Made by a program: the position numbers and the translations under genes. This document shows positions 23,328-53,370 of a stretch of 64,000 nucleotides of DNA, piece by piece (positions within the stretch are counted from its first letter, which is position 1; every line of letters begins with the position of its first letter). Location: NCBI GenBank assembly GCA_963752285.1, contig CAVVXN010000001.1, positions 416,001-480,000 on the forward strand, read 5' to 3'. Source of the stretch: an uncultured Planctomycetota bacterium (GTDB lineage Bacteria; Planctomycetota; PLA2; JAEUHO01). The notes below the pieces were generated by a model that was not told the DNA's origin, did not search any database, and worked only from the letters and a program-made list of their open reading frames with translations.

Positions 23328-23403
23328 TGGTGGAGCTGAGGGGACTCGGACCCCTTACCTCCTGATTGCGAACCAGGCGCTCTACCAGATGAGCTACAGC
23401 CCC
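23328..23403 (-). tRNA. tRNA-Ala(CGC)
   Basis: GGGGCTGTAGCTCATCTGGTAGAGCGCCTGGTTCGCAATCAGGAGGTAAGGGGTCCGAGTCCCCTCAGCTCCACCA; cloverleaf, G3:U70 identity pair, encoded CCA. Confidence 0.95.
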
Positions 23404-27377: not shown

Positions 27378-27378
27378 G

Positions 27379-29646: not shown

Positions 29647-29672
29647 GGCGCTGTTCCCATGTGGCGCTGTTC

Positions 29673-31738: not shown

Positions 31739-31920
31739 GTTGCCCCCGCACCGGGACGACGGCCGGAGCCCCGCCCCGCCGCGTCCCGCCGCATGACTCG
31801 TCGAACGGAGGTCCCGAACGGCCAACGATAGCAGGCGGCCGGAGGCGAACGTCCGAACGGAGGGGCGGGCCGGCCGTCCGCAGGTCCGCTCGATCGTCCG
31901 GGGGCGGTATGCTCGCGCGG

Positions 31921-35783: not shown

Positions 35784-36778
35784 CGCCACGCGCGGGTATG
35801 CTGGCGCCCCGCGCGCGTGGCCGCGCGGCGCGAGGGAGGAAGCGCTTGCGGACGGTGCGCGCGAGTCGCTGGGCGCCGTGGGCCCTCCTCCTCGCCGGGA
35901 GCCTCGGCGGGTGCGGGTCGCTCAACCAGAACGTGTTCGAGCTGAACCGCCACGTGGCCAACGCGGTGCGCCCTGTCGTGGGCCTGATCCTCCTCGTGCC
36001 CGAGCCGCTCCGCGACCGCGTACACGCGCTCCTCGAGAACCTCCACTACGGCGACGTGGTCGTGAACCAGCTGCTGCAGGGGAAGCCCGAGCTCGCGGGA
36101 CGGGACCTCGTGCGGTGGGTGGTCAACTCCACCCTGGGCCTCGCGGGCCTCTTCGACGTCGCGAAGGAGCTCGGGTACGAGGCCCACGACGAGGACTTCG
36201 GTCAGACGCTCGCGGTCTGGGGGTTCCCCGAGGGCGAGTACCTCGTGCTGCCGCTCGTGGGGCCGAGCACCTCGCGCGACGCCGCCGGCCTCCTGATCTC
36301 GTACTTCACGGACCCGTCTCGCTACGTCCCGAGCGGGCTCGCGGCGGAGACCCTGACGGTCGTCTCGTACGCGGACCAGGCCGTCGGCTCCCGGAAGGGC
36401 CAGGCGACGCTCGCGTCGGAGGCGATCGACGAATACGAGTTCGCGAAGGAGGCCTACCGCCAGCACCGCCGGTTCCTGATCTACGACGGCCGCCCGCCCC
36501 TCGCGGGCGGCTCCGACCTCGACGCGGCGCTCGACGCGCTCGAGAAGGAGACGGGGAAGGACACCGGGAAGGGCACGGGACGGGCCGGCGGGCCGGGCGC
36601 GGAGGCGAAGGAGGGCGCGCCGACGGTCGAGGGCCTTCCGGGACTCGAGGACCTCGGCGCCGGGGCTCCGGTGCGTTCCGTCGAGGACCTGCCGGGCCTC
36701 GACGACGTCGGGCCGGACGCGACGGAGTCGCCGCCCGCCGGCGCGGCGACGCTGCCGGGTCTCGAAGAGTCGAAGTGA
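35780..36778 (+). CDS. mlaA: VacJ/MlaA family lipoprotein
   Basis: LGGC lipobox; NSTLGLAGLFDVA, EDFGQTLAVWG, YLVLPLVGPSTSRD; start uncertain. Confidence 0.88.
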   Translation: MTPRAGMLAPRARGRAARGRKRLRTVRASRWAPWALLLAGSLGGCGSLNQNVFELNRHVANAVRPVVGLILLVPEPLRDRVHALLENLHYGDVVVNQLLQGKPELAGRDLVRWVVNSTLGLAGLFDVAKELGYEAHDEDFGQTLAVWGFPEGEYLVLPLVGPSTSRDAAGLLISYFTDPSRYVPSGLAAETLTVVSYADQAVGSRKGQATLASEAIDEYEFAKEAYRQHRRFLIYDGRPPLAGGSDLDAALDALEKETGKDTGKGTGRAGGPGAEAKEGAPTVEGLPGLEDLGAGAPVRSVEDLPGLDDVGPDATESPPAGAATLPGLEESK

Positions 36779-36808
36779 CGACGGTCCCGGGGCTACGATC
36801 GGCCGCGC

Positions 36809-37849
36809 ATGCCGCGCCGGGCCTCGATCGTCGTCTCGCTCCTCGCCGCCGCCGCGGGCGTCGGCGTCCTCGTCCACCTCTTCGCGACGACCGACCTCGC
36901 GAGCCGGGTCGGCACCCTGCCTCCCGCGGTGCTCCTCGGCGTCCCCGCCTTCGCGATCGCCGCCGCGCTCGACACGGTTTCGTGGGTCTGGGCGTTCCCG
37001 CGCGAGGCGCGGGACGTGCGTCCCTCGTTCGCCGCGCTCTTCGTGATCCGCCTCGCGGGCGAGGCGATCAACAACGCGCTCGCCTCGGCGTACGTGGCGG
37101 GCGAGCCGGTGAAGGGGCTCCTCGCCTCGCGCCACGGGCCCCGTCCGGCGATCGGGCTCGCGTCGGCGCTCGTCGGCAAGACCACCACCGTGCTCGGCGA
37201 GGTGCTCTTCCTGCTCCTCGGCGTCGCCGTCGCGCGGGCGGTGCTGCCGCGTGACCACCCGATCGTGTCGCTCCTCCTGCCGATCGCGGGGGTGGGGCTC
37301 GGCGTCGTCCTCGTGGGCATCTTGTTCCAGACGAGACGGGTGTTCGGGCGCGGTACGCGACTGCTCCGGGCGCTTCGCCTCGGCCCGCGCCGTGTCTACG
37401 ACCGCGCGCTCCCCGCGGCCGACGCCATCGACGACGCCGTCCGCGGCTACTACCGGCATCAGCGCACGGACTTTCTCGTCTCCACCCTGTTCGGGTTCCT
37501 CGGTTGGGTCGCGGGCGCCTTCGAGGTCTGGCTGTTCCTCCGCCTCGCGACGCCGGCCGAGGACCCCCTCGCGCTCGCGGTCGTCGTGGAGGCGGCCGTC
37601 GCCGTCGTGAAGGGCCTCTCGTTCTTCGTGCCCGCCTCGGTCGGCGCGCAGGAGGGGGGGATCGCGTGGCTGTTCGGCGCGCTCGGCCTCGGCGTCGAGA
37701 CGGGCCTCCTCTACGCGCTGCTCCGTCGCGCACGCGAGGTCGTGTGGATCGGGATCGGGTTCGTGGCGCTCGGCGTGCTGGTGCGGCGGCCCGCGCGCGC
37801 GCCGGTCGGGGCCGAAGCGGGCCTCTCCGCGGAGGCCGGCCCGGGATAG
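36809..37849 (+). CDS. Lysylphosphatidylglycerol-synthase TM / flippase-like protein (HpnL-like)
   Basis: Multiple TMs; IRLAGEAINN..S.YVAGEPVK, VPASVGAQEGG, LLRRARE. Confidence 0.82.
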   Translation: MPRRASIVVSLLAAAAGVGVLVHLFATTDLASRVGTLPPAVLLGVPAFAIAAALDTVSWVWAFPREARDVRPSFAALFVIRLAGEAINNALASAYVAGEPVKGLLASRHGPRPAIGLASALVGKTTTVLGEVLFLLLGVAVARAVLPRDHPIVSLLLPIAGVGLGVVLVGILFQTRRVFGRGTRLLRALRLGPRRVYDRALPAADAIDDAVRGYYRHQRTDFLVSTLFGFLGWVAGAFEVWLFLRLATPAEDPLALAVVVEAAVAVVKGLSFFVPASVGAQEGGIAWLFGALGLGVETGLLYALLRRAREVVWIGIGFVALGVLVRRPARAPVGAEAGLSAEAGPG

Positions 37850-37988
37850 GGCGCCACGGCCCCGGCGGCGGTCGTCCCGTCCCGCGCCGGCGCCTCCCGC
37901 CATTCGCGATTCGTTCGGGCGCACCGTGGTAGAACCCGGGCGCCGGGGGGGCAGTCGGGCCCGATCCCCGCATCCACGAGGTACGAGG

Positions 37989-38795
37989 GTGCGCCTCCCC
38001 CGCCTGGCCCTCCTCACGGGACTCCTCGCGGCCGGGACCGCGGCCCCCGTCGCGGGCGCGGCGAACGGCTGCTCCGGGGCGCGCACGAGCGAGCTCCCCC
38101 GGGACGAGAGCCGGATCGAGGTCGGCCGCCCCGAGCCTGCCCCCGCGGCCTCGGCGCCCGCTCGGCCGGCGGAACGTCCGACGACGTCCCCGACGACCCC
38201 GGCGGGCGGGGCGCCCGCTTCGGGCCCCGCGCGACCGGCGCTCCCGCCGCTCGCGGAGAGCGCGTTCACGCCGCTCGTCCTCGACGGGGCCCGCGGCGGA
38301 TCGCTCGCGTACGACCTCGAGGGCGGCGTCGAGGCGGTCGGGGCCATGCTCCTCGACTACGACCATGCGGACGGACAGCGCGCGTGGGCCGAGACGTACC
38401 GCACCGTGGGCCGCGACGGCGACCGAGAGCGCGCGGAGTGGAAGTTCCGCGGGAAACTCGGGGTCGCCCCCCGCGTCGTCCTCGATCTCGAGCGGGAGCG
38501 CGTCGAGGGAGACGCGATCCGCGTGCGCTTCCAGCTCTCGGAGACGGCGTTCGGGTTGAAGCGGTTCTTCGGAGACTGGCGCGTCGAGCCCGTCGCCGGC
38601 GTCCCGGACCGCGCCCACGTGACCGCGCGTGTCTTCATCGACTCGGGTCTCCCGTTCGTGAACGCCTCGCACGACGACGTGCGGGACGGGCTCCGCGAGG
38701 ACGCGCGCCTCATGCGGGCGTGGATGGACCGGCGGCTCGCGTCCGCGCGGTCCACGGGCGCCGAGGCCCCGGGTCGTCCTGGAGGTGGTCGATGA
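37989..38795 (+). CDS. Exported START/SRPBCC-like lipid-binding protein
   Basis: Signal or lipoprotein-like N-terminus, Pro-rich linker, LLDYDH...FGLKRFFGDWRVEP cyclase/START-type pattern. Confidence 0.6.
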   Translation: MRLPRLALLTGLLAAGTAAPVAGAANGCSGARTSELPRDESRIEVGRPEPAPAASAPARPAERPTTSPTTPAGGAPASGPARPALPPLAESAFTPLVLDGARGGSLAYDLEGGVEAVGAMLLDYDHADGQRAWAETYRTVGRDGDRERAEWKFRGKLGVAPRVVLDLERERVEGDAIRVRFQLSETAFGLKRFFGDWRVEPVAGVPDRAHVTARVFIDSGLPFVNASHDDVRDGLREDARLMRAWMDRRLASARSTGAEAPGRPGGGR

Positions 38796-40153
38796 ACGCC
38801 GTTCCGATCGATCCCTGTCGCGGCCGGCTGGGCGTCCTGCTCCCGGGCATGGGCGCGGTCGCCACGACCTTCATCGCGGGCGTCGAGCTCGCGAAGAAGG
38901 GGAAGGGCGACCTCTTCGGGTCCGTCACGCAGCACCAGCACATCCGGCTCGGCAAGCGCTACGAGGAGCGGCGTCCGCTGATTCGCGAGGTGGTCCCGCT
39001 CGAGAAGCCCGAGAACCTCGTCTTCGGCGGTTGGGATCTCTTCCCGGACGACGCGTGGCAGGCGCAGGAGAAGGCGGGCGTCCTCTCCGCCGCGACGCTC
39101 GCTCCCGTCGAGCAGGAGCTCCGCGGGATCCGACCGATGCCCGGCGCGTACGACCCGGCGTTCCTCAGGAACCTCGTCGGGACGCACGTGAAGAAGGGCG
39201 GCTCGAAGATGGACCTCGCGCGCCAGGTCATGGACGACGTCGAGCGGTTCCGCGAGGCGCACGACCTCGAGCGTCTCGTCATGGTGTGGTGCGGCTCGAC
39301 GGAATCGCACCTCGTACCCGGTCCGCACCACCAGACGATCGAGGCGTTGGAGGAGGCGTTCGAGCGTCACCCCGAGGTCGTCCCGCCGTCGATGATCTAC
39401 GCGTACGCGGCGCTCCGCCTCGGCGTTCCGTACGCGAACGGCGCCCCGAACCTCTCCGTGGACGTCCCCGCGATGGTCGCGCTCGCCGAGACGCGAGGTG
39501 TCCCCATCGCCGGCAAGGACTTCAAGACCGGGCAGACGCTCCTGAAGACGGTGATCGCGCCGGGGTTGAAGGCGCGCATGCTCGGCCTCCAGGGCTGGTA
39601 CTCGACCAACATCCTCGGGAACCGCGACGGCGAGGTGCTCGACGACCCCGGCTCCTTCAAGACGAAGGAGGAGAGCAAGCGCGCGGTCCTCGACTCCATC
39701 CTCGAGCCGGAGCTCCATCCCGCCCTCTACGGGAACGTGACGCACAAGATCCGCATCGACTACTACCCGCCGCGCGGGGACGCGAAGGAGGGCTGGGACA
39801 ACATCGACATCGTCGGCTGGCTGGGCATGCCGATGCAGATCAAGGTCAACTTCCTCTGCCGGGACTCGATCCTCGCCGCGCCCCTCGTCCTCGACCTGGC
39901 GCTCTTCCTCGACCTCGCGAAGCGGAGCGGGCTCGCCGGCATCCAGGAGTGGCTGTCCTTCTACTTCAAGGCCCCCCTCTGCCGTTCGGACCTACGTCCC
40001 GAGCACGGGCTCTTCGTGCAGGAGCTCAAGCTCATGAACACGCTCCGGATCCTCATCGGGGAGGAGGTGCTCGACCACGCCGGGCTCGACTACTACGATC
40101 CCGAGCGGGGCACGCCGGTCGTCGCGCCCCCGCCGCGACGCCCCGCGCCGTGA
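38792..40153 (+). CDS. ino1: myo-inositol-1(3)-phosphate synthase
   Basis: GMGAVATT, FGGWD, WCGSTE, ANGAPN, GKDFKTGQT, STNILGNRDG, KEGWDNID, CRDSILAAP, SFYFKAP. Confidence 0.95.
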   Translation: MNAVPIDPCRGRLGVLLPGMGAVATTFIAGVELAKKGKGDLFGSVTQHQHIRLGKRYEERRPLIREVVPLEKPENLVFGGWDLFPDDAWQAQEKAGVLSAATLAPVEQELRGIRPMPGAYDPAFLRNLVGTHVKKGGSKMDLARQVMDDVERFREAHDLERLVMVWCGSTESHLVPGPHHQTIEALEEAFERHPEVVPPSMIYAYAALRLGVPYANGAPNLSVDVPAMVALAETRGVPIAGKDFKTGQTLLKTVIAPGLKARMLGLQGWYSTNILGNRDGEVLDDPGSFKTKEESKRAVLDSILEPELHPALYGNVTHKIRIDYYPPRGDAKEGWDNIDIVGWLGMPMQIKVNFLCRDSILAAPLVLDLALFLDLAKRSGLAGIQEWLSFYFKAPLCRSDLRPEHGLFVQELKLMNTLRILIGEEVLDHAGLDYYDPERGTPVVAPPPRRPAP

Positions 40154-40263
40154 CCGCCGTCGCGGGACGGCCCGCCGCCCGGCGCGCGCGCGGGTCGCGC
40201 GCGCCAGAACTTGGATCCCCGTCACCCACCGGTTGAGATTCCGGTTTCCCTCGCCGAGACGTG

Positions 40264-40935
40264 ATGCTCCCCGACGCGATCCTCTTCGACTTCGGCGGCA
40301 CGCTGGATGCCGACGGCGTCCCGTGGAAGGACCGGTTCCGCGCGCTCTTCGAGGCCGAGGGCGCGACGCTCGGTCCCGAGGCGTTCGACCGCGCGTTCTA
40401 CGACGCGGACGACCCGATCGTGGACCGCGCGGACCCGGGGAGCACGTACGCCGCGACGGTCGAGGAGCTGTCCCGCGCCCTCGCGGCGGCCGTCGGCCGG
40501 CCCGATGCCGCGGCGCGCGTCGCCGCGCGCTTCCTCGGTGCGTCACGGGCGCGCATCGACGCGAACCTCGCCGTGCTTCGTCGCCTGGCGAGGCGCCACC
40601 GGATCGGGGTCGTCTCGAACTTCTACGGAAACCTCGACGCCGCGCTCCGCGAGACGGGGCTCGACGAGGTCGTCGAGGCCGCCGCCGACTCGGCCCGCGT
40701 GGGCGCGAAGAAGCCCGACGCCGCGATCTTCGCGTGGGCGCTCTCGCGACTGGGCGTCCCGCCCGGGCGGGCGGTGATGGTCGGCGACTCCGTCGGGCGC
40801 GACGTGGAGGGCGCCCGTCGTCTCGGCATGCCGTATCGGCTGCTGCTCCGCGCCGAGGCGACCGCGCCGCCGGCCGGCGTGGACCCCGCCTGGGTCATCC
40901 GCTCCCTCGGGGAGCTCGAGGAGGGTCTCTCGTGA
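40264..40935 (+). CDS. HAD-family hydrolase/phosphatase
   Basis: FDFGGTLD, VSNFYGN, KKPDAAIF, VGDS..RD. Confidence 0.9.
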   Translation: MLPDAILFDFGGTLDADGVPWKDRFRALFEAEGATLGPEAFDRAFYDADDPIVDRADPGSTYAATVEELSRALAAAVGRPDAAARVAARFLGASRARIDANLAVLRRLARRHRIGVVSNFYGNLDAALRETGLDEVVEAAADSARVGAKKPDAAIFAWALSRLGVPPGRAVMVGDSVGRDVEGARRLGMPYRLLLRAEATAPPAGVDPAWVIRSLGELEEGLS

Positions 40936-41666
40936 GCGACGCGGTGATCGAGTCCGGCGGCGTCATCGCGGCCGGAGAAGGAAGTCGTCTGCGCGAGCGG
41001 GGGAGCAAGGCGCTCGTCGAGGTGGGCGGGGAGGCGCTGCTCGGACACGCGATCCGCCGCCTCCTCTCGGCGGGCGTAAAGCGGGTGGTGGTCATCGTCC
41101 GCGAGGAGGACCGCGCGCTCGAGCCGTGGATCCGGAGTCGCTTCCCCGACGTGGACGTAGACGTCGTCGTGAAGACCACCGCCTCGTCGGCCGAGAGCCT
41201 CTGCGAGGTCGTGAATCGGCTCGACGTTCCGCGCGTCCTGGTCTCGACCGTGGACGCCGTGCTGCCCGACGACGCGTTCCTCGCGTTCGCGCGCGCGGCC
41301 GCCGCGCGCCCGCCCGACGCCCTGGGCCTCGGCGTCACGCCGTGGGTGGACGACGAGAAGCCCCTCTGGGCCGACTGGGACGACACGGGCCGCGTGACCG
41401 CGCTGGGCGGGCCCTCGGGCAGGGGCGCGACGGCCGGTCTCTACGTCGTCCCGCGCGACTTGCCCTCGCTGGTGGGGGAGGGCGCGGGGCGTCCCCTTCG
41501 GTCGCTGCTCGGGACCTGGGTCGGGCTCGGTCGGCCGACGTGGGCCGAGGTGCTCGAGAAGGTCGTGGACGTGGACCGTCCGATCGACGTGGCGGAGGCC
41601 GAGTCGCTCTGGCGCGACGGGGGGCCGGCCGGACGGGACGATCGCGACGCGGGAGCCTCCTCTTGA
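40932..41666 (+). CDS. NTP transferase (putative inositol-phosphate cytidylyltransferase)
   Basis: IAAGEGSRL, KALVEVGG, STVD, VDDEKPL, AGLY, DVDRPIDV. Confidence 0.8.
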   Translation: MSDAVIESGGVIAAGEGSRLRERGSKALVEVGGEALLGHAIRRLLSAGVKRVVVIVREEDRALEPWIRSRFPDVDVDVVVKTTASSAESLCEVVNRLDVPRVLVSTVDAVLPDDAFLAFARAAAARPPDALGLGVTPWVDDEKPLWADWDDTGRVTALGGPSGRGATAGLYVVPRDLPSLVGEGAGRPLRSLLGTWVGLGRPTWAEVLEKVVDVDRPIDVAEAESLWRDGGPAGRDDRDAGASS

Positions 41667-42535
41667 CCCCGCCCCGTCTCCTCGGCGTCTACCGCGAGGC
41701 CGCCCACTCTCCGGGCCGCGTGGGCGACGACGCCCGCGTCCTCGAGCGCGTGGCGGAGCGCCTTCGGAGCGCCGGGTGCGAGGTCGTGCTCGTGGGCCCC
41801 GACGCGCTCGCGGACGCCGTCTGTGGATCGGTCCCGGACCTGGTGTTCGCGATGTGCGAGCAGGCGTCGGCCCTCGAGGTCCTCGAGGGCCTCGCGCCGA
41901 AGGGCGTGCGCTTCGTGAACGAGGTGGGCGCGATCCGGAACACGTTCCGCGACCGCATGCTGCCCCGCCTCGCGGCGCTCGGCGACGCGTTCCCCCCGAG
42001 CCGGCTCGTCCCGACCGCCGGGTCCGACGATCCCGCGGCCGGCGCCGCCTACGACGGCCTCGGCCCGGTATGGGTGAAGCGCGGCGACTTCCACCAGACC
42101 CGCGCGGGCGACGTCACGTTCGCGGCCGACGGCGATCAGGTGGCCCACGCGCTCCTCGCGCTCGCGCGCCGCGACGTCGAGAACGCGGTCGTGCAGGTCC
42201 ACGTGCCGGGCGACCTCGTGAAGTTCTACGGCGTCGGGCTCGGAGCCGACGACTGGTTCTGCCACTTCCACCACGCGGGGCAGCGCCTCGCCGGCACGCC
42301 GTACGAGGGAGCGCGGCTGGCCGCGCTCGCCCGGCGCGCGGCCGGTCTGCTCGGCCTCGAGGTCTACGGCGGCGACGCCATCGTCCGGGCCGACGGCGGC
42401 CTCGTGGTCATCGACGTGAACACCTGGCCGTCGTTCGCGCTCGTGCGCGAGGAGGCGGCCGAACGGATCGCGGCGCACCTGCTCTCCCGGCTCCGGGAGC
42501 CGGCGGGTGCCGTCGCGCAAGAGGGAGACGCATGA
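41663..42535 (+). CDS. ATP-grasp-fold protein
   Basis: VWVKRGD, VQVHVPGDLVKFYGV, YGGDAIV, VIDVNTWPSF; TTGA coupling. Confidence 0.75.
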   Translation: MTPPRLLGVYREAAHSPGRVGDDARVLERVAERLRSAGCEVVLVGPDALADAVCGSVPDLVFAMCEQASALEVLEGLAPKGVRFVNEVGAIRNTFRDRMLPRLAALGDAFPPSRLVPTAGSDDPAAGAAYDGLGPVWVKRGDFHQTRAGDVTFAADGDQVAHALLALARRDVENAVVQVHVPGDLVKFYGVGLGADDWFCHFHHAGQRLAGTPYEGARLAALARRAAGLLGLEVYGGDAIVRADGGLVVIDVNTWPSFALVREEAAERIAAHLLSRLREPAGAVAQEGDA

Positions 42536-43860
42536 GCGCCTTCGAGGCCGGTCCGCGATCCCGGGCGATCTTCGAGCGCGACCAGCGCCACATGGCGCCG
42601 GGTCTGCAGTCGGTCGCGCTCTACGCGCCGATCGCGATGGACCACGGCCACGGCGCCGAGCTCTTCGACGCCGACGGCCGCCGGTACGTAGACTTCCTCG
42701 CCGGCGTCGCCGTCGCGAGCCTGGGCGCGGCTCACCCGCACTGGGTGAAGCGCATGCAGGAGCAGGCGTCCCGCGTCGTCCACGGCTCGTTCGCGACCGA
42801 GAACCGTGCGCGCTTCCTGGAGCTGCTCGCGTCCACGACCCCCGAGGGCCTGAAGCGCATCCAGCTCTACTCCGGTGGGGCCGAGGCCGTCGAGGCGTCG
42901 TTCCGCATGGCGAAGTCGGTCACGAAGGGCTACGAGGTCGTCGGCTTCTACGGCGGCTTCCACGGCAAGACGGGCGGCGTGCTCGGCCTCCTCGGCAGCG
43001 ACACGAAGAAGGCGCTCGGCCCGTACATGCCCGGCCAGCGCCTGGCGCCGTACGCGTACTGCTATCGGTGTCCTCTCTCGCTCACGCACCCGTCGTGCGG
43101 CATCGCGTGCGCGGAGCAGCTCCGGGACGTGATCCGGTACCAGACGGAGGGAAAGCTGTCGGCCGTGATCGTCGAGCCCGTGCAAGGCACGGCCGGCAAC
43201 GTCGTGCCGCCGAAGGGGTTCCTGTCGGCGATCGCCCAGATCGCGCGCGAGGCCGGTGCGCTTCTGATCGCCGACGAGATGATCACCGGGTTCGGCCGGA
43301 CGGGTCGGATGTGGGGCGTCGAGCACGAGGGTCTCGTCCCCGACGCGATGACGATCGGGAAGGGCATCGGCTCGGGCTTCCCCATGAGCGGTCTCGTGAC
43401 ACGCGAGGATCTCGCTTCCGCGCCGCCGTTCGGCCTGCCTTCGGGGTCGTCGTCCTCGTACGGGGGCAACCCGTTCGCCGCGACGGCGGGGCTCGCGACG
43501 CTGGAGGTCATCCTGGAGGAGGGCCTCGTCGAGCGGTCCCGGACACTCGGGGCGCGCATGCTCGAACGCCTGAAGGAGATGCAGGAGCGACACCCGTTCA
43601 TCGGAGACGTCCGCGGTCAGGGCCTCCTCATCGGGGTCGAGCTCGTTCGGGACCGGGCGACGAAGGAACCCCTCCCGAAGAGCGTCACGCTCGACCTCTT
43701 CCACCGCGCCCTGAGCCGCGGGCTCCTCTCGATGAGCTACGGCTCGTCCATCCGGATCAACCCGCCGCTCGTCCTGACCGACGACCAGGCGGACGAGGGC
43801 CTCCAGGTGCTCGACGAGGTCTTCGGCGAGGTGGCCCGCGAGGGCCGGTGGCGGGGGTGA
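42532..43860 (+). CDS. Class III (PLP) aminotransferase
   Basis: SGGAEAVE, GFHGKT, EPVQG, IADEMITGFGRTG, TIGKGIGSG, YGGNP. Confidence 0.92.
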   Translation: MSAFEAGPRSRAIFERDQRHMAPGLQSVALYAPIAMDHGHGAELFDADGRRYVDFLAGVAVASLGAAHPHWVKRMQEQASRVVHGSFATENRARFLELLASTTPEGLKRIQLYSGGAEAVEASFRMAKSVTKGYEVVGFYGGFHGKTGGVLGLLGSDTKKALGPYMPGQRLAPYAYCYRCPLSLTHPSCGIACAEQLRDVIRYQTEGKLSAVIVEPVQGTAGNVVPPKGFLSAIAQIAREAGALLIADEMITGFGRTGRMWGVEHEGLVPDAMTIGKGIGSGFPMSGLVTREDLASAPPFGLPSGSSSSYGGNPFAATAGLATLEVILEEGLVERSRTLGARMLERLKEMQERHPFIGDVRGQGLLIGVELVRDRATKEPLPKSVTLDLFHRALSRGLLSMSYGSSIRINPPLVLTDDQADEGLQVLDEVFGEVAREGRWRG

Positions 43861-44864
43861 CGCGCCTTCGCGGGGCGATCGTCGGGCTCGGCGCGATCGC
43901 GCGCGGCGGTCACTGGCCGCGCTGGCGGGTGAACGACCGCGTCTTGATCGTGGGCGCGGTGGAGATCGCCGCGCCGGGCCCCTCGGACGAGGCCACGGGC
44001 CTGCGCGTCTGGCCGACCCTCGACGCGCTCCTGGCCGAGGAGCCGCTCGACTTCGTGGACGTCTGCACGCCGCCCGACCGCCACGCGGAGCTCGTCGAGG
44101 TCGCGCTCGGCCGCGGGCTCCACGTGCTCTGCGAGAAGCCGCTCGTGGTCCGCCGGGCCGACATGGACCGCGTGGCCCGCGCGGCGGACGCCGGCGACCG
44201 TGTCCTGTTCACCGTGCACAACTGGCTCCACGCCCCGATCGTCGAAGCGGTCTCCCGCTTCGTGCGCGCGGGACGCGTGGGCCGGGTCGTCGAGGCCACG
44301 TGGACCGTCGAGCGCACGGGCCCGTCCGCGACGGTGGAGAAGGAGGGCAACTGGCGCCTGGACCCCGCCGTGGCGGGCGGCGGCATCCTCGTGGACCACG
44401 GCTGGCACGCGCTCTACGTGCTCCTCGACTGGCTCGGCGTGCGGCCCGAGCGGGTGGCGGCGCGGCTCGAGCGGCGCCGCCACGTGGACCTCGCTGTCGA
44501 GGACACCGCGCACGTCGAGCTCGAGCTCCCCGGCGCGCGGTCCGTCCTCGACCTCACCTGGGCGGCCGACCGACGGCGGAACGAGGCGTCCGTCGTGGGG
44601 ACCGAGGGATCCATCCGACTCCTCGACGACCACCTCGTCCTGGATGGGCCGCGCGGCGAGACGTTGCGGTTCGACGCGCCCCTCTCGGGCGGCTCCACGC
44701 ATCCCGACTGGTTCGACGCGACGGCGGCGCGCTTCCTGGACGAGGTCGATGGGCGGTCGCCCCGCGGCGCGAACCTCGCCGTCGCCACGACGTGCTTTTG
44801 CGTTCTCGAGGCCGCGTGGCGCTCCGCCGCCGACGGCGGACGCCCGGCGCGGGTGGCCGACTGA
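43857..44864 (+). CDS. Gfo/Idh/MocA family oxidoreductase
   Basis: GLGAIA, VCTPP..H, HVLCEKP, GGGILVDHGWH. Confidence 0.92.
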   Translation: MTRLRGAIVGLGAIARGGHWPRWRVNDRVLIVGAVEIAAPGPSDEATGLRVWPTLDALLAEEPLDFVDVCTPPDRHAELVEVALGRGLHVLCEKPLVVRRADMDRVARAADAGDRVLFTVHNWLHAPIVEAVSRFVRAGRVGRVVEATWTVERTGPSATVEKEGNWRLDPAVAGGGILVDHGWHALYVLLDWLGVRPERVAARLERRRHVDLAVEDTAHVELELPGARSVLDLTWAADRRRNEASVVGTEGSIRLLDDHLVLDGPRGETLRFDAPLSGGSTHPDWFDATAARFLDEVDGRSPRGANLAVATTCFCVLEAAWRSAADGGRPARVAD

Positions 44865-44865
44865 G

Positions 44866-46131
44866 ATGCGTCTCGTCGTGGTCATCTCCGACGATGTCGA
44901 GCGCGAAGCCGCGCTCGCGAACGTCGGCGGGATCCCGCTTCTGAGGCGGACGGTGCTCTGCGCGCGCAAGCGCGGGTTCGACAACATCGAGGTCGTCGTG
45001 CGCGCGGACGTGGCCCGCGTGGCCCGCGCCCTCGACGGGACGGGCGCCCGCGTGGCGCCCGAGGCGACCGTCAAGGCGACGCCGACGCTGCTCCTCGCGC
45101 CGACGTTCCTGCCGGCCGACTCCTGGCTCGCCACGCACGCCGTCGTGACGGACGCGGCGACCGCGGTCCACGGCGACGGCCGGGTCGCCGTCACCCTCGA
45201 GGGAAGCGAGGCCGAGCGCCTCGCGCGCGGCGACCTGCGTCCCGCGGCCCTCGCGCGGCTCCTCCCGGATCCGCTCGCTGCGCCGCCTCCGGAGGGAGAC
45301 GACGCGTCGGACGCCGCGGGGCGCCGCGCGCTCGAGAGGAAGCTGCTCCAGTCGCTGGTGAAGCCGAGCGAGGGCTTCATGTCGCGCCACGTCGAGCGGC
45401 GGATCTCGCTCGCCGTCACGCGCCGCTTGATGAACGAGCGGATCACGCCGAACCAGATGACGTGGATCAGCACGGGCGTCGGGCTCCTCGGCGCCTGCTG
45501 CTTCCTGTTCTCCGGGCGCGGTTTCGCGATCGCGGGCGCGGTGCTCTTCCTCGTGCACTCGATCCTCGACGGGTGCGACGGCGAGCTCGCCCGTCTCCGT
45601 CACCAGGAGAGCCGCGCGGGCGGCCTCCTGGACTTCTGGTCCGACAACGTGGTGCACGTCGCCGTGTTCCTCGCGCTGGGCGCGGGTTGGTCGCGCGAGG
45701 CGGCCTCGTTCCTGCCGCTCGTGATCGCCGGCCTCGCGGTCTTCGGGACCGTCTTCGCCGCCGCCTGGGTCCACGCGACGACCCTCGTGTCGCGGGACCA
45801 AGGGCCTCCCGGCCCGCTCTACGTCTCGGTCGCGCCCAACGCCGCGGCGTCGCGGGCGGTGCGCCTCGCCGACGTCCTCTCGCGCCGCGACTTCATCTGG
45901 CTCGTGCTCCTCCTCGCGATCGTCGGATGGATCCGGGTCTTCCTCGTGCTCGCCGCCGTCGGCGCGCCGCTCTACGCCGCGCTCCTCGTGTGGATCCGGA
46001 TCCGGGAGGCGCGGCACGCCGCGGGCGGGGGGCCCCGGCACGAGGGCCCGCCGGCCGCCAACGACGCCGCCGACGTCGCCCCCGAGGACACGTTCGGGGG
46101 CCCGGGCCGGCCCGCCCCGCCGGTAGGATGA
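44866..46131 (+). CDS. CDP-alcohol phosphotransferase (DIPPS-like) with a degenerate NTP-transferase-like N-terminus
   Basis: ITPNQMT, DGCDGELAR...GGLLDFWSD signature; KPSEGFMSRHVERRIS; SRRDF. Confidence 0.88.
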   Translation: MRLVVVISDDVEREAALANVGGIPLLRRTVLCARKRGFDNIEVVVRADVARVARALDGTGARVAPEATVKATPTLLLAPTFLPADSWLATHAVVTDAATAVHGDGRVAVTLEGSEAERLARGDLRPAALARLLPDPLAAPPPEGDDASDAAGRRALERKLLQSLVKPSEGFMSRHVERRISLAVTRRLMNERITPNQMTWISTGVGLLGACCFLFSGRGFAIAGAVLFLVHSILDGCDGELARLRHQESRAGGLLDFWSDNVVHVAVFLALGAGWSREAASFLPLVIAGLAVFGTVFAAAWVHATTLVSRDQGPPGPLYVSVAPNAAASRAVRLADVLSRRDFIWLVLLLAIVGWIRVFLVLAAVGAPLYAALLVWIRIREARHAAGGGPRHEGPPAANDAADVAPEDTFGGPGRPAPPVG

Positions 46132-46198
46132 CCGGCCGCGCTCCCGGGACGAGCGCCCCGGCCGGGAGCCGGGAGGGGCGGGAGCGCGAGCGGAAGAG

Positions 46199-48217
46199 AT
46201 GCACTCGACGGCGTCGCCCGCACTCGAGGATCGGCACGCCGCTGTGGCGGCGGGCGGCCCCGTGCGCCTCGCCGACCGGGCCCGCGAGGCGCTCCTAAGG
46301 GCCCGGGCCCAGCTGCTCCGGGTCCAGGCGCTCGACGGGTCCTGGTGCGCCGAGCTCGAGGGCGACTCGATCCTCGTCTCCGAGTACGTGCTCACGCAGT
46401 GGTTCCTCGGCCGGCAGGGTTCGCCGCGGGTGCGAAAGGCCGCCGAGACGCTCCGTCGCAGGCAGCGTCCCGACGGCGCGTGGTCGCTCTTCCCGGGCGG
46501 ACCCGACGAGCTGAGCGCGTCGGTCAAGGCCTACTTCGTGCTGAAGCTCTCGGGCGACGCGCCCGACGCGCCGCACATGGAGCGCGCCCGGCGGTCGATC
46601 CTCGCGCTCGGCGGCCTCGAGGCGACGAACTCGTACACGAAGATCTACCTCGCGATCTTCGGACAGTACCCGTGGGAGGGATGCCCCGCGATCCCTCCGG
46701 AGCTCGTCCTCTTCCCGTCGTGGTTCCCGTTCAACCTCTACGAGATGTCGTCGTGGTCGCGTGCGATCGTCGTGCCGCTCTGCCTGATCTGGGCGAAGCG
46801 GCCTCACGTGACGGTGCCGGAGCGCGCCTCGATCGCCGAGCTTTGCGCCGCCGCGTCCCACGAGTCGGCAGGCGTCGTGCGCTTCGTGGGCCGCCACCCG
46901 GTCTGGACGCGGGTCTTCGGCGCGGCCGACCGCCTGCTGAAGTCGCTCGAGCGCCTCCGCCTCCGGCCCCTCCGCCGCCTCGCCATGCGACGAGCGGAGG
47001 CGTGGATCCGGGAGCGCCTCGCGGGCTGCGACGGGGTCGGCGCGATCTTCCCGCCGATCGTGAACACGATCGTCGGCTTCTCTGCGCTCGGGTACCCCGT
47101 CGACGAGCCCGTCGTCGCGAGCCAGATCGCGGAGCTCGAGCGCCTCGGGATCGAGGACGACGAGACGTTCCGCGTCCAGCCGTGCTTCTCGGCCCTGTGG
47201 GACACGGCCCAGGTGCTCAGCGCGCTCCTCGGCGCCGGTGTGGCGCCGGACGACCCCGCGGTCCTCGGGGGCGCGCGCTGGCTTCTCGCCCGCGAGGTGC
47301 GTCGCAAGGGCGACTGGGCCGTGAAGGTCCGGGGCGTGCCGGCCGGCGGCTGGTACTTCGAGTACCGGAACGAGTGGTATCCCGACTGCGACGACACGGC
47401 CGAGGTGCTCGGCGTGCTCGCGCGCGTGCGCTTCCCCGACCCCGACGAGGACGCGCGGCGCACGGCGGCGATCGAGCGCGGCCTCGCGTGGCTCCTCGGG
47501 ATGCAGAGCCCGACGGGCGGGTGGGCGGCGTTCGACCGCGCGGTGACGAAGCGCTTCCTCACCTACGTCCCGTTCGCCGACCACAACGCGATGCTCGACC
47601 CGCCGGTGGCGGACGTCACGGGACGCGCGCTCGCGGCCCTCGCCCACGCCGGCGTGCCCCAGGGGCACCGGGCCGTTCGCCGCGCGGTCCGGTTCCTCCG
47701 ACGCGAGGAGGAGGAGGACGGCACCTGGTTCGGCCGGTGGGGCGCGAACTACGTGTACGGGACCTGGCTCGCGCTGACCGGTCTCGTCCGCAGCGGCGAG
47801 GACCCGGACGCACCGTGGGTCCGCCGCTCGGCGGGCTGGCTCCAGGACCGCCAGAACCCGGACGGCGGCTGGGGCGAGAGCCTCCGGTCGTACGACGAGC
47901 CCGCCCTGAAGGGGCGTGGCGAGAGCACGGCGGCGCAGACCGCGTGGGCCCTCCTCGGGCTCCTCGCGCTCGGGCCCGCGGGGGACCCGGCCCGCGCGTC
48001 GGCCGAGCGGCGCGGCGTCGAGCGCCTCCTCGCGACGCAGCTACCCGACGGGTCCTGGTTCGACGAGTCCTTCACGGGCACCGGGTTCCCGCGCGTCTTC
48101 TACCTGCGGTACCACCTCTACGCGACGCTCTTCCCGGCGCTCGCGCTGGCCACCTGGCTCGACGTCGAGGGGGCGTCCCCCGCGGACCGCCCCGCGTCGA
48201 GCGGGAGAAACCGATGA
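46199..48217 (+). CDS. shc: Squalene--hopene cyclase
   Basis: DCDDTA catalytic motif, several QW repeats, WDTA, GRWGANYVYGT, TGTGFPRVFYLRY. Confidence 0.97.
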   Translation: MHSTASPALEDRHAAVAAGGPVRLADRAREALLRARAQLLRVQALDGSWCAELEGDSILVSEYVLTQWFLGRQGSPRVRKAAETLRRRQRPDGAWSLFPGGPDELSASVKAYFVLKLSGDAPDAPHMERARRSILALGGLEATNSYTKIYLAIFGQYPWEGCPAIPPELVLFPSWFPFNLYEMSSWSRAIVVPLCLIWAKRPHVTVPERASIAELCAAASHESAGVVRFVGRHPVWTRVFGAADRLLKSLERLRLRPLRRLAMRRAEAWIRERLAGCDGVGAIFPPIVNTIVGFSALGYPVDEPVVASQIAELERLGIEDDETFRVQPCFSALWDTAQVLSALLGAGVAPDDPAVLGGARWLLAREVRRKGDWAVKVRGVPAGGWYFEYRNEWYPDCDDTAEVLGVLARVRFPDPDEDARRTAAIERGLAWLLGMQSPTGGWAAFDRAVTKRFLTYVPFADHNAMLDPPVADVTGRALAALAHAGVPQGHRAVRRAVRFLRREEEEDGTWFGRWGANYVYGTWLALTGLVRSGEDPDAPWVRRSAGWLQDRQNPDGGWGESLRSYDEPALKGRGESTAAQTAWALLGLLALGPAGDPARASAERRGVERLLATQLPDGSWFDESFTGTGFPRVFYLRYHLYATLFPALALATWLDVEGASPADRPASSGRNR

Positions 48218-49215
48218 GATTCCCCGTCCACATCACGGTAGACACGATCCGCCACCAGGTGAAGAACGCGCTCCAGGGGAACCGCCGGTACCCCTTCGTG
48301 CTGATGCTGGAGCCGCTCTACACGTGCAACCTCGCCTGCATCGGGTGCGCGGTCGAACGCCACACGGGCCGCCTCGAGGACCGGCTGACCGTGGAGGCGT
48401 GCCTCGCGGCCTCGGACGACTGCGGCGCGCCGATCGTGTCGATCTGCGGCGGCGAGCCGACGGTCTACCCCGAGCTGCCGGAGCTGGTGCAGGGCATCAT
48501 CGACCGCAAGCGGCACATCTACCTGTGCACGAACGCGCTCCTCCTCGACAAGCGCGTGTACGGGAAGATCCCTCCCCACCGGCGCCTCTCCATCAACATC
48601 CACCTCGACGGCATGCAGAAGACGCACGACTACGTCTGCGATCGCGAGGGGACGTTCGACAAGGCCATCGCGATGGTGAAGGAGGGCAAGCGCCTGGGCT
48701 ACCACGTCCTCACCAACACCACGATCTTCAAGGAGACCGACATGGACGAGATCGAGGAGCTGTGCCGGCTCCTCCGGGGTCTCGGCGTGGACGGCATGCT
48801 CATCTCGCCCGGCTACCAGTACGAGTCGCTGCCCGGCGACATCTTCCTCACGCGGAAGGACACCTCGGAGAAGTTCAAGCGGGTCCTCGCGCTCTCGAAG
48901 CACTTCCGCCTGCAGTCGTCGCCGATGTTCCTGGAGTTCGCGGCGGGCATGCGCGAGTATCCCTGCTCGCCGTGGAGCACGGTCACGAGGACGCCGCTCG
49001 GGTGGAAGGGTCCCTGCTACCTGATCGGAAAGGGCTGGTACCCGACGTGGGACGAGTTCTGGAACGGCGTGGACTGGGACTACTGGGAGTCGCGCCAGGA
49101 CCCCCTCTGCCAGAACTGCGCCATGCACTCGGGCTTCGAGGCTTCGGTCGTGCGCGAGCTCTCGAAGAGCCCGCGCGACATGGTCCGGATGGCCGCCTGG
49201 AACGTCCTCGGCTGA
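48214..49215 (+). CDS. hpnH: Adenosyl-hopene transferase, radical SAM
   Basis: YPFVLMLEPLYTCNLACIGC, GGEP, ISPGY, PCYL, CQNCAMHSGFE; ATGA coupling to shc. Confidence 0.93.
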   Translation: MRFPVHITVDTIRHQVKNALQGNRRYPFVLMLEPLYTCNLACIGCAVERHTGRLEDRLTVEACLAASDDCGAPIVSICGGEPTVYPELPELVQGIIDRKRHIYLCTNALLLDKRVYGKIPPHRRLSINIHLDGMQKTHDYVCDREGTFDKAIAMVKEGKRLGYHVLTNTTIFKETDMDEIEELCRLLRGLGVDGMLISPGYQYESLPGDIFLTRKDTSEKFKRVLALSKHFRLQSSPMFLEFAAGMREYPCSPWSTVTRTPLGWKGPCYLIGKGWYPTWDEFWNGVDWDYWESRQDPLCQNCAMHSGFEASVVRELSKSPRDMVRMAAWNVLG

Positions 49216-49240
49216 GCCGTCCGACGCGCGGGGGGCGCCG

Positions 49241-50239
49241 ATGGACCTCGTGACGGGAGGCAGCGGCTTCGTCGGTGCGCACGTCGTCCGGTCGCTCCTC
49301 GCCCGCGGGCAGAGGGTCCGCTGCCTCGTCCGCGGCCCGCGCCCCTCGGGCCGCGGCTCTGCGAACCTCGACGGCCTCGACGTGGAGCGCGTCGAGGGGG
49401 ATCTGCTCGAGCCGGACTCGCTCGGGCCCGCGACGCGCGGCGTCGAGCGCGTGTTCCACGTGGCCGCCGACTACCGGCTCTTCGCGCGCGACCCGCGGCC
49501 GCTGTACCGCGCGAACGTGGACGGCACGCGCGCGCTCCTAGAGGCCGCGGCCCGCGAGGGCGTCCGTCGCTTCGTCCACACGTCGTCGGTCGGCGCGCTC
49601 GGCCTCACGTCCGACGGGACGCCGGCCGACGAGACGACCCCCGCGCGGCTCGCCGACATGATCGGCCACTACAAGCGCAGCAAGTTCCTCGCGGAGCGTG
49701 AGGCCGAGGCGGCGGCGGCGCGCGGGCTCCCGGTCGTGATCGTGAACCCCTCCACGCCGATCGGCGAGATGGACGCGCGGCCCACCCCCACGGGGCAGGT
49801 CGTCGTGGACTTCCTGAACCGCCGGATGCCTGCGTACGTGGACACGGGCCTGAACCTCGTGGACGTGCGGGACGTGGCCGAGGGGCACGTCCTCGCCGCG
49901 GAGCGCGGTCGTGTCGGCGAGCGCTACGTGCTCGGCGCCGAGAACCTGACCCTCCGGGCGATTCTCGAGACGCTCGCGCGGCTCACCGGGCTCCCCGCGC
50001 CGCGCGTACGCCTGCCGCGATGGATCCCCCTCCTCGTGGCCGGCGTCGAGACGGGCTTCGCGAAGTGCTTCGGGGGCACGCCGCGTGTCCCGTTGGAGGG
50101 TGTGCGGATGGCGCGGCACCGCATGTTCTTCGACCACGGGAAGGCCCGCCAAGAGCTCGGCTACGCGCCGGGCCCGGTCGAGGACGCGCTCGTCCGTGCG
50201 ATCGGGTGGTACCGGGCGAACGGGTACGTGCGGGCGTGA
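49241..50239 (+). CDS. hpnA: Hopanoid-associated NAD-dependent epimerase/dehydratase
   Basis: TGGSGFVG, FHVAADYRL, YKRSK, NPSTPIG, RMPAYVDTGLN. Confidence 0.92.
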   Translation: MDLVTGGSGFVGAHVVRSLLARGQRVRCLVRGPRPSGRGSANLDGLDVERVEGDLLEPDSLGPATRGVERVFHVAADYRLFARDPRPLYRANVDGTRALLEAAAREGVRRFVHTSSVGALGLTSDGTPADETTPARLADMIGHYKRSKFLAEREAEAAAARGLPVVIVNPSTPIGEMDARPTPTGQVVVDFLNRRMPAYVDTGLNLVDVRDVAEGHVLAAERGRVGERYVLGAENLTLRAILETLARLTGLPAPRVRLPRWIPLLVAGVETGFAKCFGGTPRVPLEGVRMARHRMFFDHGKARQELGYAPGPVEDALVRAIGWYRANGYVRA

Positions 50240-50973: not shown

Positions 50974-50977
50974 ACGC

Positions 50978-53364: not shown

Positions 53365-53370
53365 GAGGCC

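Follow-up and report, generated by a model that had tools for sequence, protein, structure and literature searches.

A nine-gene cassette within a hopanoid operon

We analysed a 64,000-nucleotide stretch of DNA, hereafter the window, from an uncultured Planctomycetota bacterium (assembly GCA_963752285.1, contig CAVVXN010000001.1, positions 416,001 to 480,000), in which a cassette of genes for a putative (amino)inositol-phosphate head group lies inside an operon for hopanoids, major bacterial membrane lipids and geological biomarkers whose polar side-chain diversity is still being catalogued. Since the window has a G+C content of ~74%, raw lists of open reading frames (ORFs) are useless, and genes were called with a third-position-GC log-odds caller and annotated by Pfam and NCBIfam scans. 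One long run of genes on the + strand extends from HpnM through the cassette to an HpnG-like gene; it is given below with the squalene synthase-like gene beside it (bit scores are followed by the model cutoff, other values are E-values).

31909-33069, + strand: HpnM, MlaC-like periplasmic lipid-binding protein (TIGR03481 247 bits, cutoff 160; PF05494 1.1e-53)
33270-35783, + strand: HpnN, RND/MMPL hopanoid transporter (TIGR03480 887 bits, cutoff 752)
35846-36778, + strand: MlaA-like lipoprotein with lipobox LGGC (PF04333 2.2e-51)
36809-37849, + strand: LPG_synthase_TM (LPGtm), HpnL-like, flippase-like membrane protein (PF03706 2.8e-17; 7 hydrophobic segments)
37926 or 37989-38795, + strand: putative SRPBCC-like lipoprotein (PF10604 9e-4, below the Pfam cutoff)
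38792-40153, + strand: MIPS, myo-inositol-3-phosphate synthase, long type (PF07994 1.5e-87)
40261-40935, + strand: HAD, HAD-IA hydrolase (PF00702 3e-18)
40932-41666, + strand: NTP, MobA-like NTP_transf_3 protein, putative CTP:(amino)inositol-phosphate cytidylyltransferase (PF12804 1e-15)
41663-42535, + strand: AGL, ATP-grasp enzyme of an unnamed family and hallmark of the cassette (no Pfam match; assigned by fold)
42532-43860, + strand: AT3, class III (GABA-AT-like) aminotransferase (PF00202 5.5e-94)
43848-44864, + strand: GFO, Gfo/Idh/MocA NAD(P) dehydrogenase (PF01408/PF22725)
44866-46131, + strand: CDPOH, AF2299/DIPPS-like CDP-alcohol phosphotransferase (PF01066 2.5e-11)
46244-48217, + strand: SHC, squalene-hopene cyclase (TIGR01507 666 bits, cutoff 431)
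48214-49215, + strand: HpnH, adenosyl-hopene transferase (TIGR03470 369 bits, cutoff 225)
49241-50239, + strand: HpnA (TIGR03466 475 bits, cutoff 368)
50236-50973, + strand: HpnG-like nucleoside phosphorylase/hydrolase (TIGR03468 119 bits, below the cutoff of 187; PF01048)
50978-51904, - strand: squalene synthase-like protein, SQS_PSY (PF00494 3.7e-35)

Positions 36809 and 46131 are exact gene boundaries of the cassette. An initial interpretation made from the letters without database searches (the sequence-only reading) had placed nine genes, on one strand and for the most part overlapping, between hpnN/mlaA and shc-hpnH-hpnA-hpnG, and the gene calls together with the Pfam and NCBIfam matches recover precisely this layout. 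Overlaps of 4 nt occur at SRPBCC/MIPS, HAD/NTP, NTP/AGL, AGL/AT3, SHC/HpnH and HpnA/HpnG, AT3 and GFO overlap by 13 nt, the GFO/CDPOH spacing is +1 nt, and the only larger intergenic gaps in the run are of 139, 107 and 112 nt. Scanning 31500-51400 gave no promoter-like sites (0.2 expected) and one terminator-like site, in GFO (3.4 expected), numbers that are uninformative at 74% GC. The absence of hpnI, hpnK and hpnJ from the window, also pointed out initially, was borne out, with no gene of these kinds (glycosyltransferase, second radical-SAM protein, deacetylase) among the 55 called genes scanned. LPGtm scored 121 bits against the HpnL model TIGR03476, below its curated cutoff of 195.65, and is thus an HpnL relative but not a member at threshold. 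What had been called a START protein stands in part: the ORF shows a weak SRPBCC similarity, an atlas score of 0.92 to Polyketide_cyc and Myxococcota lipoprotein clusters and a signal-like hydrophobic segment at residues 27-45, but the Pfam match is sub-threshold and tblastn found a counterpart in none of the 80 related loci described below, so that this lineage-specific gene is a weak point of the observation. The MlaA-like lipoprotein corresponds to what is called 'HpnS' in bioRxiv 10.1101/2025.07.29.667474. The 386-aa HpnM contains two MlaC-like stretches, the canonical domain being at 219-376, which indicates an N-terminal extension or duplication of ~200 aa.

A conserved module in many bacterial phyla

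Homologues of AGL, CDPOH and AT3 are unnamed or annotated as 'hypothetical' and recur together on the same contigs. A profile built from an alignment of 45 AGL sequences and run against species-representative genomes yielded at least 577 confirmed AGL loci, of which the best 80 were kept, 42 of them with full flanks (at least 8 kb on both sides). The same profile matched 1390, 970 and 509 clusters at E<=1e-3, E<=1e-10 and E<=1e-30, respectively, among 1.84 billion representatives. The 80 loci (denoted below by L and a number) span Methylomirabilota, Rokuibacteriota, Acidobacteriota/Thermoanaerobaculia, Nitrospirota, Alphaproteobacteria (including Pseudolabrys), Thermodesulfobacteriota/'Deltaproteobacteria', Elusimicrobiota, Chloroflexota and Binatota; no Bacteroidota are among these best 80.

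Matching the window proteins to the 80 loci by tblastn located HAD in 71, NTP in 74, AT3 in 75, GFO in 67, CDPOH in 63 and LPGtm in 51 (33 of the 42 with full flanks), the majority of the misses falling at contig ends. The complete core of six genes (HAD, NTP, AGL, AT3, GFO and CDPOH) was recovered from 50 of the 80 loci, or from 32 when only the 42 with full flanks are counted. Of the 59 loci with all five of HAD, NTP, AGL, AT3 and GFO, 49 have them as a compact, collinear set in this order, the ten exceptions being mostly due to a displaced HAD, and because the same gene order recurs to this extent the arrangement in the window is not a product of chance. HAD-NTP-AGL-AT3-GFO-CDPOH is a conserved, widespread and so far unnamed module that is new here, and it is usually accompanied by MIPS and LPGtm.

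Further genes adjoin the module in some lineages. Some Rokuibacteriota and Methylomirabilota loci contain a second head-group set composed of a second NTP-transferase, a second CDP-alcohol phosphotransferase and LPGtm (e.g. L002:1249-6227), accompanied in L001, L002 and L044 by a gene for a thiamine pyrophosphate (TPP)-dependent decarboxylase-like protein; a HalD-like gene occurs in L001, L002, L018, L039 and L044, and a gene of the phosphoenolpyruvate (PEP)-mutase family lies near the cassette in L016 (L016:19735-20556). The second sets with these TPP-enzyme, HalD-like and PEP-mutase-family genes suggest a pathway for a phosphonate head group. In a Methylomirabilales metagenome-assembled genome (L006:16733-19055), a fused NTP-transferase/CDP-alcohol phosphotransferase lies a few kb beyond the cassette and is followed by a second LPG_synthase_TM gene, and this IPCT/DIPPS-type fusion gave the best DIPPS-like score that we saw (NF041135, 218 bits). 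Given such second NTP-transferase and CDP-alcohol phosphotransferase sets beside the cassette, the module can be said to sit in 'head-group islands'. Directly downstream of CDPOH in 17 of the 80 loci, mostly Rokuibacteriota and Methylomirabilota, is a gene for a ~520-aa CopD-like membrane protein (e.g. L016:14327-15889; 59-73% identity to the L016 copy, which is counted in the 17), and where LPGtm was found there the gene separates it from CDPOH. The protein could be an additional component of the module. One Rokubacteria locus has a PMT_2/ArnT-like GT-C glycosyltransferase gene between GFO and HpnN (L002:13279-15027).

Linkage to hopanoid and isoprenoid genes

We counted genes within 10 kb of the cassette, both in the 42 full-flank loci and in all 80, bearing in mind that related loci are not independent. 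SHC or HpnH was found in 13 of 42 (15 of 80), and any hopanoid-associated gene (HpnM/N, MlaA, HpnA/B/C/D/E/G or squalene synthase, SQS) in 22 of 42 (30 of 80), a broad class defined by tblastn at E<=1e-8 in which MlaC, RND, SDR and MlaA homologues need not be hopanoid-specific. When dxs and ispH are admitted besides the hopanoid genes, the counts rise to 33 of 42 and 46 of 80. The recurrent association with hopanoid genes that the window had suggested thus extends to several phyla, and in differing arrangements: hpnA-GT2-hpnC-hpnD-hpnE-shc-MIPS-HAD-NTP-AGL-AT3-GFO in Alphaproteobacteria of the L038 type; hpnH-hpnA-hpnG-SQS-x-dxs-ispH-LPGtm-HAD-NTP-AGL-AT3-GFO-CDPOH-MIPS in Acidobacteriota of the L054 type; OEP-MlaC-HpnN-MlaC-PagL-SHC-LPGtm-cassette-MIPS in the Methylomirabilales locus L006; and, in L045, hpnCD/E-shc-hpnG, hpnH and ispH, followed by MIPS-HAD-NTP-AGL-AT3-GFO and after it by CDPOH, LPGtm, MlaA, HpnN and HpnM. 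SHC occurs in ~10% of species (1645/15541), and the cassette-bearing phyla are among the SHC-rich phyla listed in the same source (bioRxiv 10.1101/2025.07.29.667474).

Enzymes of the module

Two MIPS types accompany the module. That of the window matches PDB 7nwr over its full length (E 8.4e-147), whereas in loci such as L002, L038 and L045, where tblastn with the window MIPS was blank, Pfam revealed a short MIPS just upstream of HAD. The short type (L038) matches M. tuberculosis Ino1 (1gr0) at 3.2e-130 and scores 455-514 bits against TIGR03450, below the 638 cutoff set for the mycothiol clade, and the similarity between the two types reaches only E 7e-9. Searching with both located MIPS in 44 of the 80 loci (23 long, 7nwr-like; 21 short, 1gr0-like) and in 32 of the 42 with full flanks. 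That MIPS might be optional in the loci blank in tblastn was rejected, since the short type is there by Pfam. Since one module has recruited two isofunctional enzymes that are only distantly related, there is good reason to take inositol-3-phosphate as its input, in support of the precursor proposed from the window alone. No MIPS lies within 10 kb in ten of the 42 full-flank loci, mainly those of Rokuibacteriota and of a short module variant (see below), which may have the gene elsewhere in the genome or use a different substrate.

Activation of the CTP type and CDP-alcohol transfer, anticipated in the sequence-only reading, are both encoded. NTP carries the nucleotidyltransferase motif AAGEGSR; its matches are weak ones to IPCT (NF041135, 26 bits, E 3.6e-6), IspD and MurU, with none to PDB sequences at E<=1e-3. 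CDPOH retains the signature D(x)2DG(x)2AR...G(x)3D(x)3D (D235GCDGELAR...GGLLDFWSD in the window; motif present in 7/7 relatives read), and its nearest PDB sequences are AF2299 (2.5e-18) and IPCT/DIPPS 4mnd (5e-15), followed by PIP synthase 6wm5 (1.1e-8). Against NF041135 it scores 92.8 bits over residues 158-377 only, far from the cutoff of 580, and so is not a bifunctional IPCT/DIPPS equivalog; NF045883 and NF040950 match weakly (49 and 56 bits; cutoffs 170 and 180). Its AlphaFold model can be laid over AF2299 (TMt 0.74) and 4mnd along almost its entire length (~380-440 alignment columns). The N-terminal domain weakly resembles a nucleotidyltransferase fold and has no GxGxR in the window protein, in 7 relatives or in the family consensus. 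CDPOH therefore looks like a DIPPS-type enzyme with a decayed fused cytidylyltransferase, as in AF2299, replaced by a free-standing one.

The ATP-grasp assignment of AGL, for which there is no Pfam match, holds by fold. Its AlphaFold model (pLDDT 92.3) retrieved D-Ala-D-Ala ligases (Ddl) and RimK with Foldseek (TM-score 0.6-0.72, E ~1e-14), the AGL profile matches RimK and an ATP-grasp entry at ~1e-4, and by this modelled three-domain fold AGL is an ATP-grasp enzyme. As to whether it is a ligase or a kinase, the RimK and Ddl matches span the protein and those to ITPK1 cover residues 216-258 only (E ~6e-3). Natural fusions tie the enzymes into one pathway: 13 long matches examined among the 150 listed for the AGL profile comprise ten NTP-AGL fusions, an AGL-CDPOH fusion (P0368, 700 aa), a HAD-NTP-AGL fusion (P0385, 802 aa) and one without a Pfam match, and NTP and AGL form a single ORF in three of the 80 loci. 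Fused as it is to NTP and CDPOH, AGL should act on a phospho- or CDP-alcohol and not on a distant metabolite. HAD has motif I as FDFGGTL in 63 of 67 orthologues, with the nucleophile Asp kept and Gly at Asp+2 in all 67, and hence is not a textbook phosphomonoesterase; among PDB sequences it matches generic or designed HAD folds only. E. coli glucose-1-phosphatase YihX has a similar DxG motif, an analogy that would suggest, only as a lead, a substrate with a good leaving group.

Among the core enzymes AT3 is the best conserved, with 54-65% identity across phyla compared with 25-61% for the other five, and is GABA-aminotransferase-like (best PDB group ~1e-72; ArgD ~1e-53). AT3 and GFO are adjacent on the same strand, GFO directly after AT3, in all 67 loci with both. 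GFO has the motif EKP at residue 96, its relatives being generic sugar or inositol dehydrogenases; an apparent C-terminal extension in L038 was dismissed as read-through junk and not a domain. We also considered whether AT3 is HpnO. On Streptomyces fungicidicus plasmid p1 (L081), hpnC-D-E-shc-hpnH-ispG-dxs is followed by an aminotransferase gene, in what we take to be the hpnO position of Streptomyces clusters. AT3 shares 30% identity with its product (E 6e-44), and the best NCBIfam families differ (PigE/ArgD for the S. fungicidicus protein; PRK05769/PRK08117/GABA-AT for AT3), on which grounds the identity with HpnO, for which the S. fungicidicus protein stands by synteny, was rejected. The low identity and different families make AT3 a distinct subfamily locked to the cassette, in line with the initial view that the aminotransferase belongs there. 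In an AT3 tree of 70 rows (the window and 69 loci, without six AT3-bearing loci whose matches were short), the phyla come out largely monophyletic, with the window on a long branch of its own, and hopanoid linkage appears in every major clade (8 changes).

A proposed pathway and its alternatives

We read the module as a so far undescribed pathway for an (amino)inositol-phosphodiester head group of an envelope lipid tied to the hopanoid membrane system, with a probability of about 0.5; in this reading the head group is derived from inositol and probably aminated. MIPS, assigned by family, would supply inositol-3-phosphate, and NTP would activate an inositol-type phosphate with CTP. Given the family chemistry and the invariant AT3-GFO pairing, GFO may oxidise one hydroxyl and AT3 transaminate the resulting ketone to an amino-deoxy-inositol, at the phosphate or CDP level. 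AGL would then modify the small molecule, either as an ATP-dependent amide ligase acting on the new amine or, alternatively, as a kinase that, in concert with HAD, shifts the phosphate to another position. CDPOH, with its motif intact and its substrates putative, would form the phosphodiester, and HAD, with its non-canonical motif, may remove a phosphate or another activated group. The flippase-like LPGtm would move the product outward, a task in which the SRPBCC lipoprotein and HpnM/HpnN/MlaA may share in the window. Because of the gene linkage, a C35 bacteriohopanepolyol (BHP) is the favoured candidate for the lipid partner, and we put forward tentatively, as a proposal still short of likely, that a phospho-(amino)inositol, possibly N-acylated by AGL, is attached to its C35 side chain to give a class of phospho-hopanoids.

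Several observations weigh against this reading. The family matches of GFO and AT3 are generic, and HAD lacks in 67 of 67 orthologues the Asp+2 general acid of canonical phosphatases (DxDx[TV]). Three loci have a short LPGtm-HAD-AGL-CDPOH module with no NTP, AT3 or GFO within flanks that are a full 10 kb in L035 and L076 and reach only ~2.4 kb downstream in L070. In L048 a compact HAD-AGL-CDPOH stands beside shc-hpnH-hpnA-hpnG, with NTP and AT3 ~8 kb off on the opposite strand and no GFO found in the flanks by tblastn. These four variants imply that amination and dedicated activation are not universal. Five alphaproteobacterial loci within hpn operons (L038, L059, L063, L068 and L078) have no CDPOH or LPGtm within 10 kb. 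The linkage to hopanoid genes is itself incomplete: 20 of the 42 full-flank loci have no hopanoid-associated gene, even in the broad and not strictly hopanoid-specific class, and on whether the cassette usually occurs without shc, the pattern that the sequence-only reading had named as counting against it, the outcome is mixed, with no SHC or HpnH within 10 kb in 29 of 42 and one or the other in 13. Overall, the sequence-only reading is supported in part, for the precursor, the encoded activation and transfer, the place of the aminotransferase in the cassette and the recurrent hopanoid linkage, with amination of inositol, N-acylation by AGL and a BHP acceptor as putative elements.

The strongest argument against transfer of CDP-inosamine to a lipid hydroxyl is the predicted architecture of CDPOH, whose AlphaFold model (pLDDT 84.7) has six transmembrane (TM) helices and a disordered tail, without an extra C-terminal TM module. 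According to the relevant part of PMC4634129, six-TM enzymes use soluble acceptors, inositol phosphate for instance, irrespective of the donor, those with lipid acceptors have three or four further helices, and AF2299 and AfDIPPS, which have the cytidylyltransferase-like domain, process no lipids. A soluble product akin to di-myo-inositol phosphate (DIP) is therefore a live alternative, that is, an (amino)inositol phosphodiester, maybe acylated, serving as a compatible solute, with hopanoid genes as neighbours only because the two share a role in stress tolerance. A complete DIP enzyme set is there, in the form of MIPS, a cytidylyltransferase-type enzyme, a DIPPS-like six-TM transferase and a phosphatase-type HAD, and the NTP-AGL and HAD-NTP-AGL fusions indicate soluble intermediates. 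We nonetheless consider such a solute unlikely, as the module includes the flippase-like LPG_synthase_TM gene in 33 of 42 full-flank loci, the cassette is inserted within hpn operons with overlapping codons, the HpnM/HpnN/MlaA lipid-transport genes adjoin it, and CDPOH, at 93 bits against a cutoff of 580, is no DIPPS equivalog. The six-TM architecture also argues against a bulky lipid acceptor (PMC4634129) and so bears on a second alternative, an inositol- or inosamine-phospho-diacylglycerol or ceramide coupled to hopanoids functionally and not covalently, for example by co-trafficking to the outer membrane. Its domain set is that of the putative alternative inositol-lipid cluster of PMC9246714, many loci have no hopanoid genes nearby, and a fatty-acid/sphingolipid desaturase-like gene lies beside the short module in L035 and L076; yet that Bacteroides pathway is itself unconfirmed, and the genes linked to the module in 33 of 42 full-flank loci are those for hopanoids and isoprenoids and not those for glycerolipids, which leaves this alternative doubtful in our view.

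Two other schemes would draw the hopanoid directly into the chemistry. HpnG, of the nucleoside phosphorylase superfamily, could give ribosylhopane-1-phosphate, NTP could convert it to CDP-ribosylhopane, CDPOH could transfer this to an (amino)inositol phosphate much as PIP and archaetidylinositol phosphate (AIP) synthases do with CDP-lipids, and HAD could remove the terminal phosphate. Such a route would account for the hopanoid linkage, fits the best weak matches of NTP to the sugar-1-phosphate nucleotidyltransferases MurU, GlmU and RmlA-like, and obeys the rule that the acceptor of six-TM CDP-alcohol phosphotransferases is a soluble inositol phosphate, whichever kind of donor is used (PMC4634129). 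But it is pure inference, hpnG and hpnH are not nearby in many loci, NTP, being soluble and naturally fused to AGL, fits small-molecule substrates better, and CDPOH is closer to the soluble-donor AF2299/DIPPS than to PIP synthases (2.5e-18 versus 1.1e-8), so that we regard it as very improbable. Alternatively, GFO could oxidise C-35 of bacteriohopanetetrol and AT3 aminate it, giving an HpnO-independent aminobacteriohopanetriol that AGL would N-acylate. N-acylated aminotriols are known, class III aminotransferases typically have terminal aldehydes and amines as substrates, and Gfo/Idh/MocA-aminotransferase pairs classically aminate ring carbons of sugars and cyclitols, the last of which tells against amination of a side chain. 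N-acetyl-aminobacteriohopanetriol is mentioned in PMC9228677, and amino-BHPs are more widespread than hpnO (PMC12583986). Against this, AT3 and GFO stay tied to NTP, AGL and CDPOH in every phylum, even with no hopanoid gene near, and the fusions of AGL to NTP and CDPOH place its substrate in the CDP-alcohol branch; we think a side-chain route of this kind highly unlikely.

Other features of the window

Directly upstream of the hopanoid run is a block of mevalonate-pathway genes on the - strand (26787-31738):

26787-27377, - strand: NUDIX protein, possibly isopentenyl diphosphate isomerase
27379-29646, - strand: HMG-CoA reductase fused to mevalonate kinase, 755 aa
29673-30743, - strand: phosphomevalonate-kinase-like gene
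30740-31738, - strand: diphosphomevalonate decarboxylase

Related Acidobacteriota loci have dxs-ispH, of the methylerythritol phosphate (MEP) pathway, beside the cassette instead of mevalonate genes. Squalene in the window seemingly comes from the single squalene-synthase-like enzyme (best match TIGR01559-type, weak), and related alphaproteobacterial loci have the HpnC/D/E trio. Immediately after the squalene synthase-like gene are genes for a VWA-domain protein and an AAA+ (MoxR/BchD-like) ATPase (52282-54780, - strand). Elsewhere, the opposite-strand ORFs 3834-5576 (-) and 4432-6456 (+) overlap and both score as coding by third-position GC; Pfam domains (GAF and SpoIIE phosphatase) are present on 4432-6456 (+) only, and 3834-5576 (-) is probably a high-G+C shadow. 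The sole tRNA gene of the window is that for tRNA-Ala (CGC) (23328-23403, -), and other genes encode DUF4388, FG-GAP, HEAT, TPR, PASTA and SpoIIE proteins, which, like the 74% G+C and the mevalonate pathway, would in themselves point to a Myxococcota-like host.

Novelty and significance

Full-text literature searches, in which most subscription journals were not covered, returned no description of the cassette or of an inositol-phospho-hopanoid and nothing relevant on inosamine phospholipid headgroups in bacteria. The words inositol, CDP and ATP-grasp are absent from two hopanoid genomics papers, bioRxiv 10.1101/2025.07.29.667474 (main text) and PMC12583986, the latter a 2025 survey of Alphaproteobacteria that sought new BHP genes beside hpn clusters and, in the part of its text that deals with them, names no obvious candidates. 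What is new here is a six-to-eight-gene module, with an unnamed ATP-grasp family as its hallmark, that occurs in hundreds of species genomes and repeatedly in hopanoid/isoprenoid loci. If the head group is indeed conjugated to a hopanoid, the module would define a lipid class not yet described and, with it, novel precursors of biomarkers in phyla that are environmentally dominant and mostly uncultured. A phospho-hopanoid would be a class missed by standard acetylation or periodate BHP work-ups, and its makers would be Methylomirabilota, Rokuibacteriota, Acidobacteriota, Nitrospirota, some Alphaproteobacteria and the host of the window. Were the product instead an amino-inositol glycerolipid or a solute, bacterial inositol metabolism would extend well beyond Actinobacteria, Bacteroidota and thermophiles. 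In addition, the module would give the orphan structural model AF2299 a family context.

Comparison with known systems

Like the IPCT/DIPPS system of Archaeoglobus (AF0263, 4mnd; paralogue AF2299, 4o6m), the module combines MIPS, a cytidylyltransferase and a phosphatase step, and CDPOH resembles IPCT/DIPPS and AF2299 in being a six-TM CDP-alcohol phosphotransferase with a cytidylyltransferase-like N-domain. The two differ in that the active nucleotidyltransferase of the module is a separate gene, that the CDPOH N-domain has no GxGxR, that the module further includes an ATP-grasp enzyme, an aminotransferase, a dehydrogenase and a flippase-like protein, and that it is found, next to hopanoid genes, in uncultured or environmental bacteria from several phyla. 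With the hopanoid-tailoring genes hpnI/J/K/L and hpnO it has in common the embedding in hpn operons, an HpnL-related flippase-like protein and an aminotransferase, whereas hpnI/J/K are missing from the window, AT3 is only 30% identical to the hpnO-position aminotransferase and LPGtm falls below the cutoff of the HpnL model.

Parallels to individual steps are found in kanosamine synthesis by NtdC/NtdA/NtdB (dehydrogenase, aminotransferase and HAD) and in ADP-heptose synthesis by HldE/GmhB (kinase, HAD and nucleotidyltransferase). The former would correspond to a sugar or cyclitol phosphate being oxidised by a Gfo/Idh/MocA enzyme and then transaminated, and the latter to a possible relocation of phosphate before nucleotide activation; the aminotransferase of the module is nevertheless of class III and its candidate kinase has an ATP-grasp fold, and these parallels serve as no more than a lead.

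In Bacteroides vulgatus and Prevotella, a cluster with MIPS, an NTP-transferase, a CDP-alcohol phosphatidyltransferase, HAD and a nearby LPG-synthase-like gene has been proposed, without confirmation, as an alternative, Kennedy-like route to inositol lipids via CDP-inositol (PMC9246714). All five domain types are also adjacent in the window, a likeness by description, and unlike the module that cluster is described, in the passage devoted to it, without ATP-grasp, aminotransferase or dehydrogenase genes and without a hopanoid link (PMC9246714). Finally, the PIP/AIP synthase route, in which a CDP-lipid reacts with inositol-1-phosphate before a phosphatase acts, shares with the module an inositol-phosphate acceptor, putative in the module, a six-TM enzyme and a terminal phosphatase, but not the dedicated soluble nucleotidyltransferase, nor the N-terminal cytidylyltransferase-like domain of CDPOH, which is absent from PIP synthases. 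The nearest characterised relatives of CDPOH, namely DIPPS, AIP synthase and PIP synthase, are nevertheless all enzymes of inositol-phosphate chemistry.

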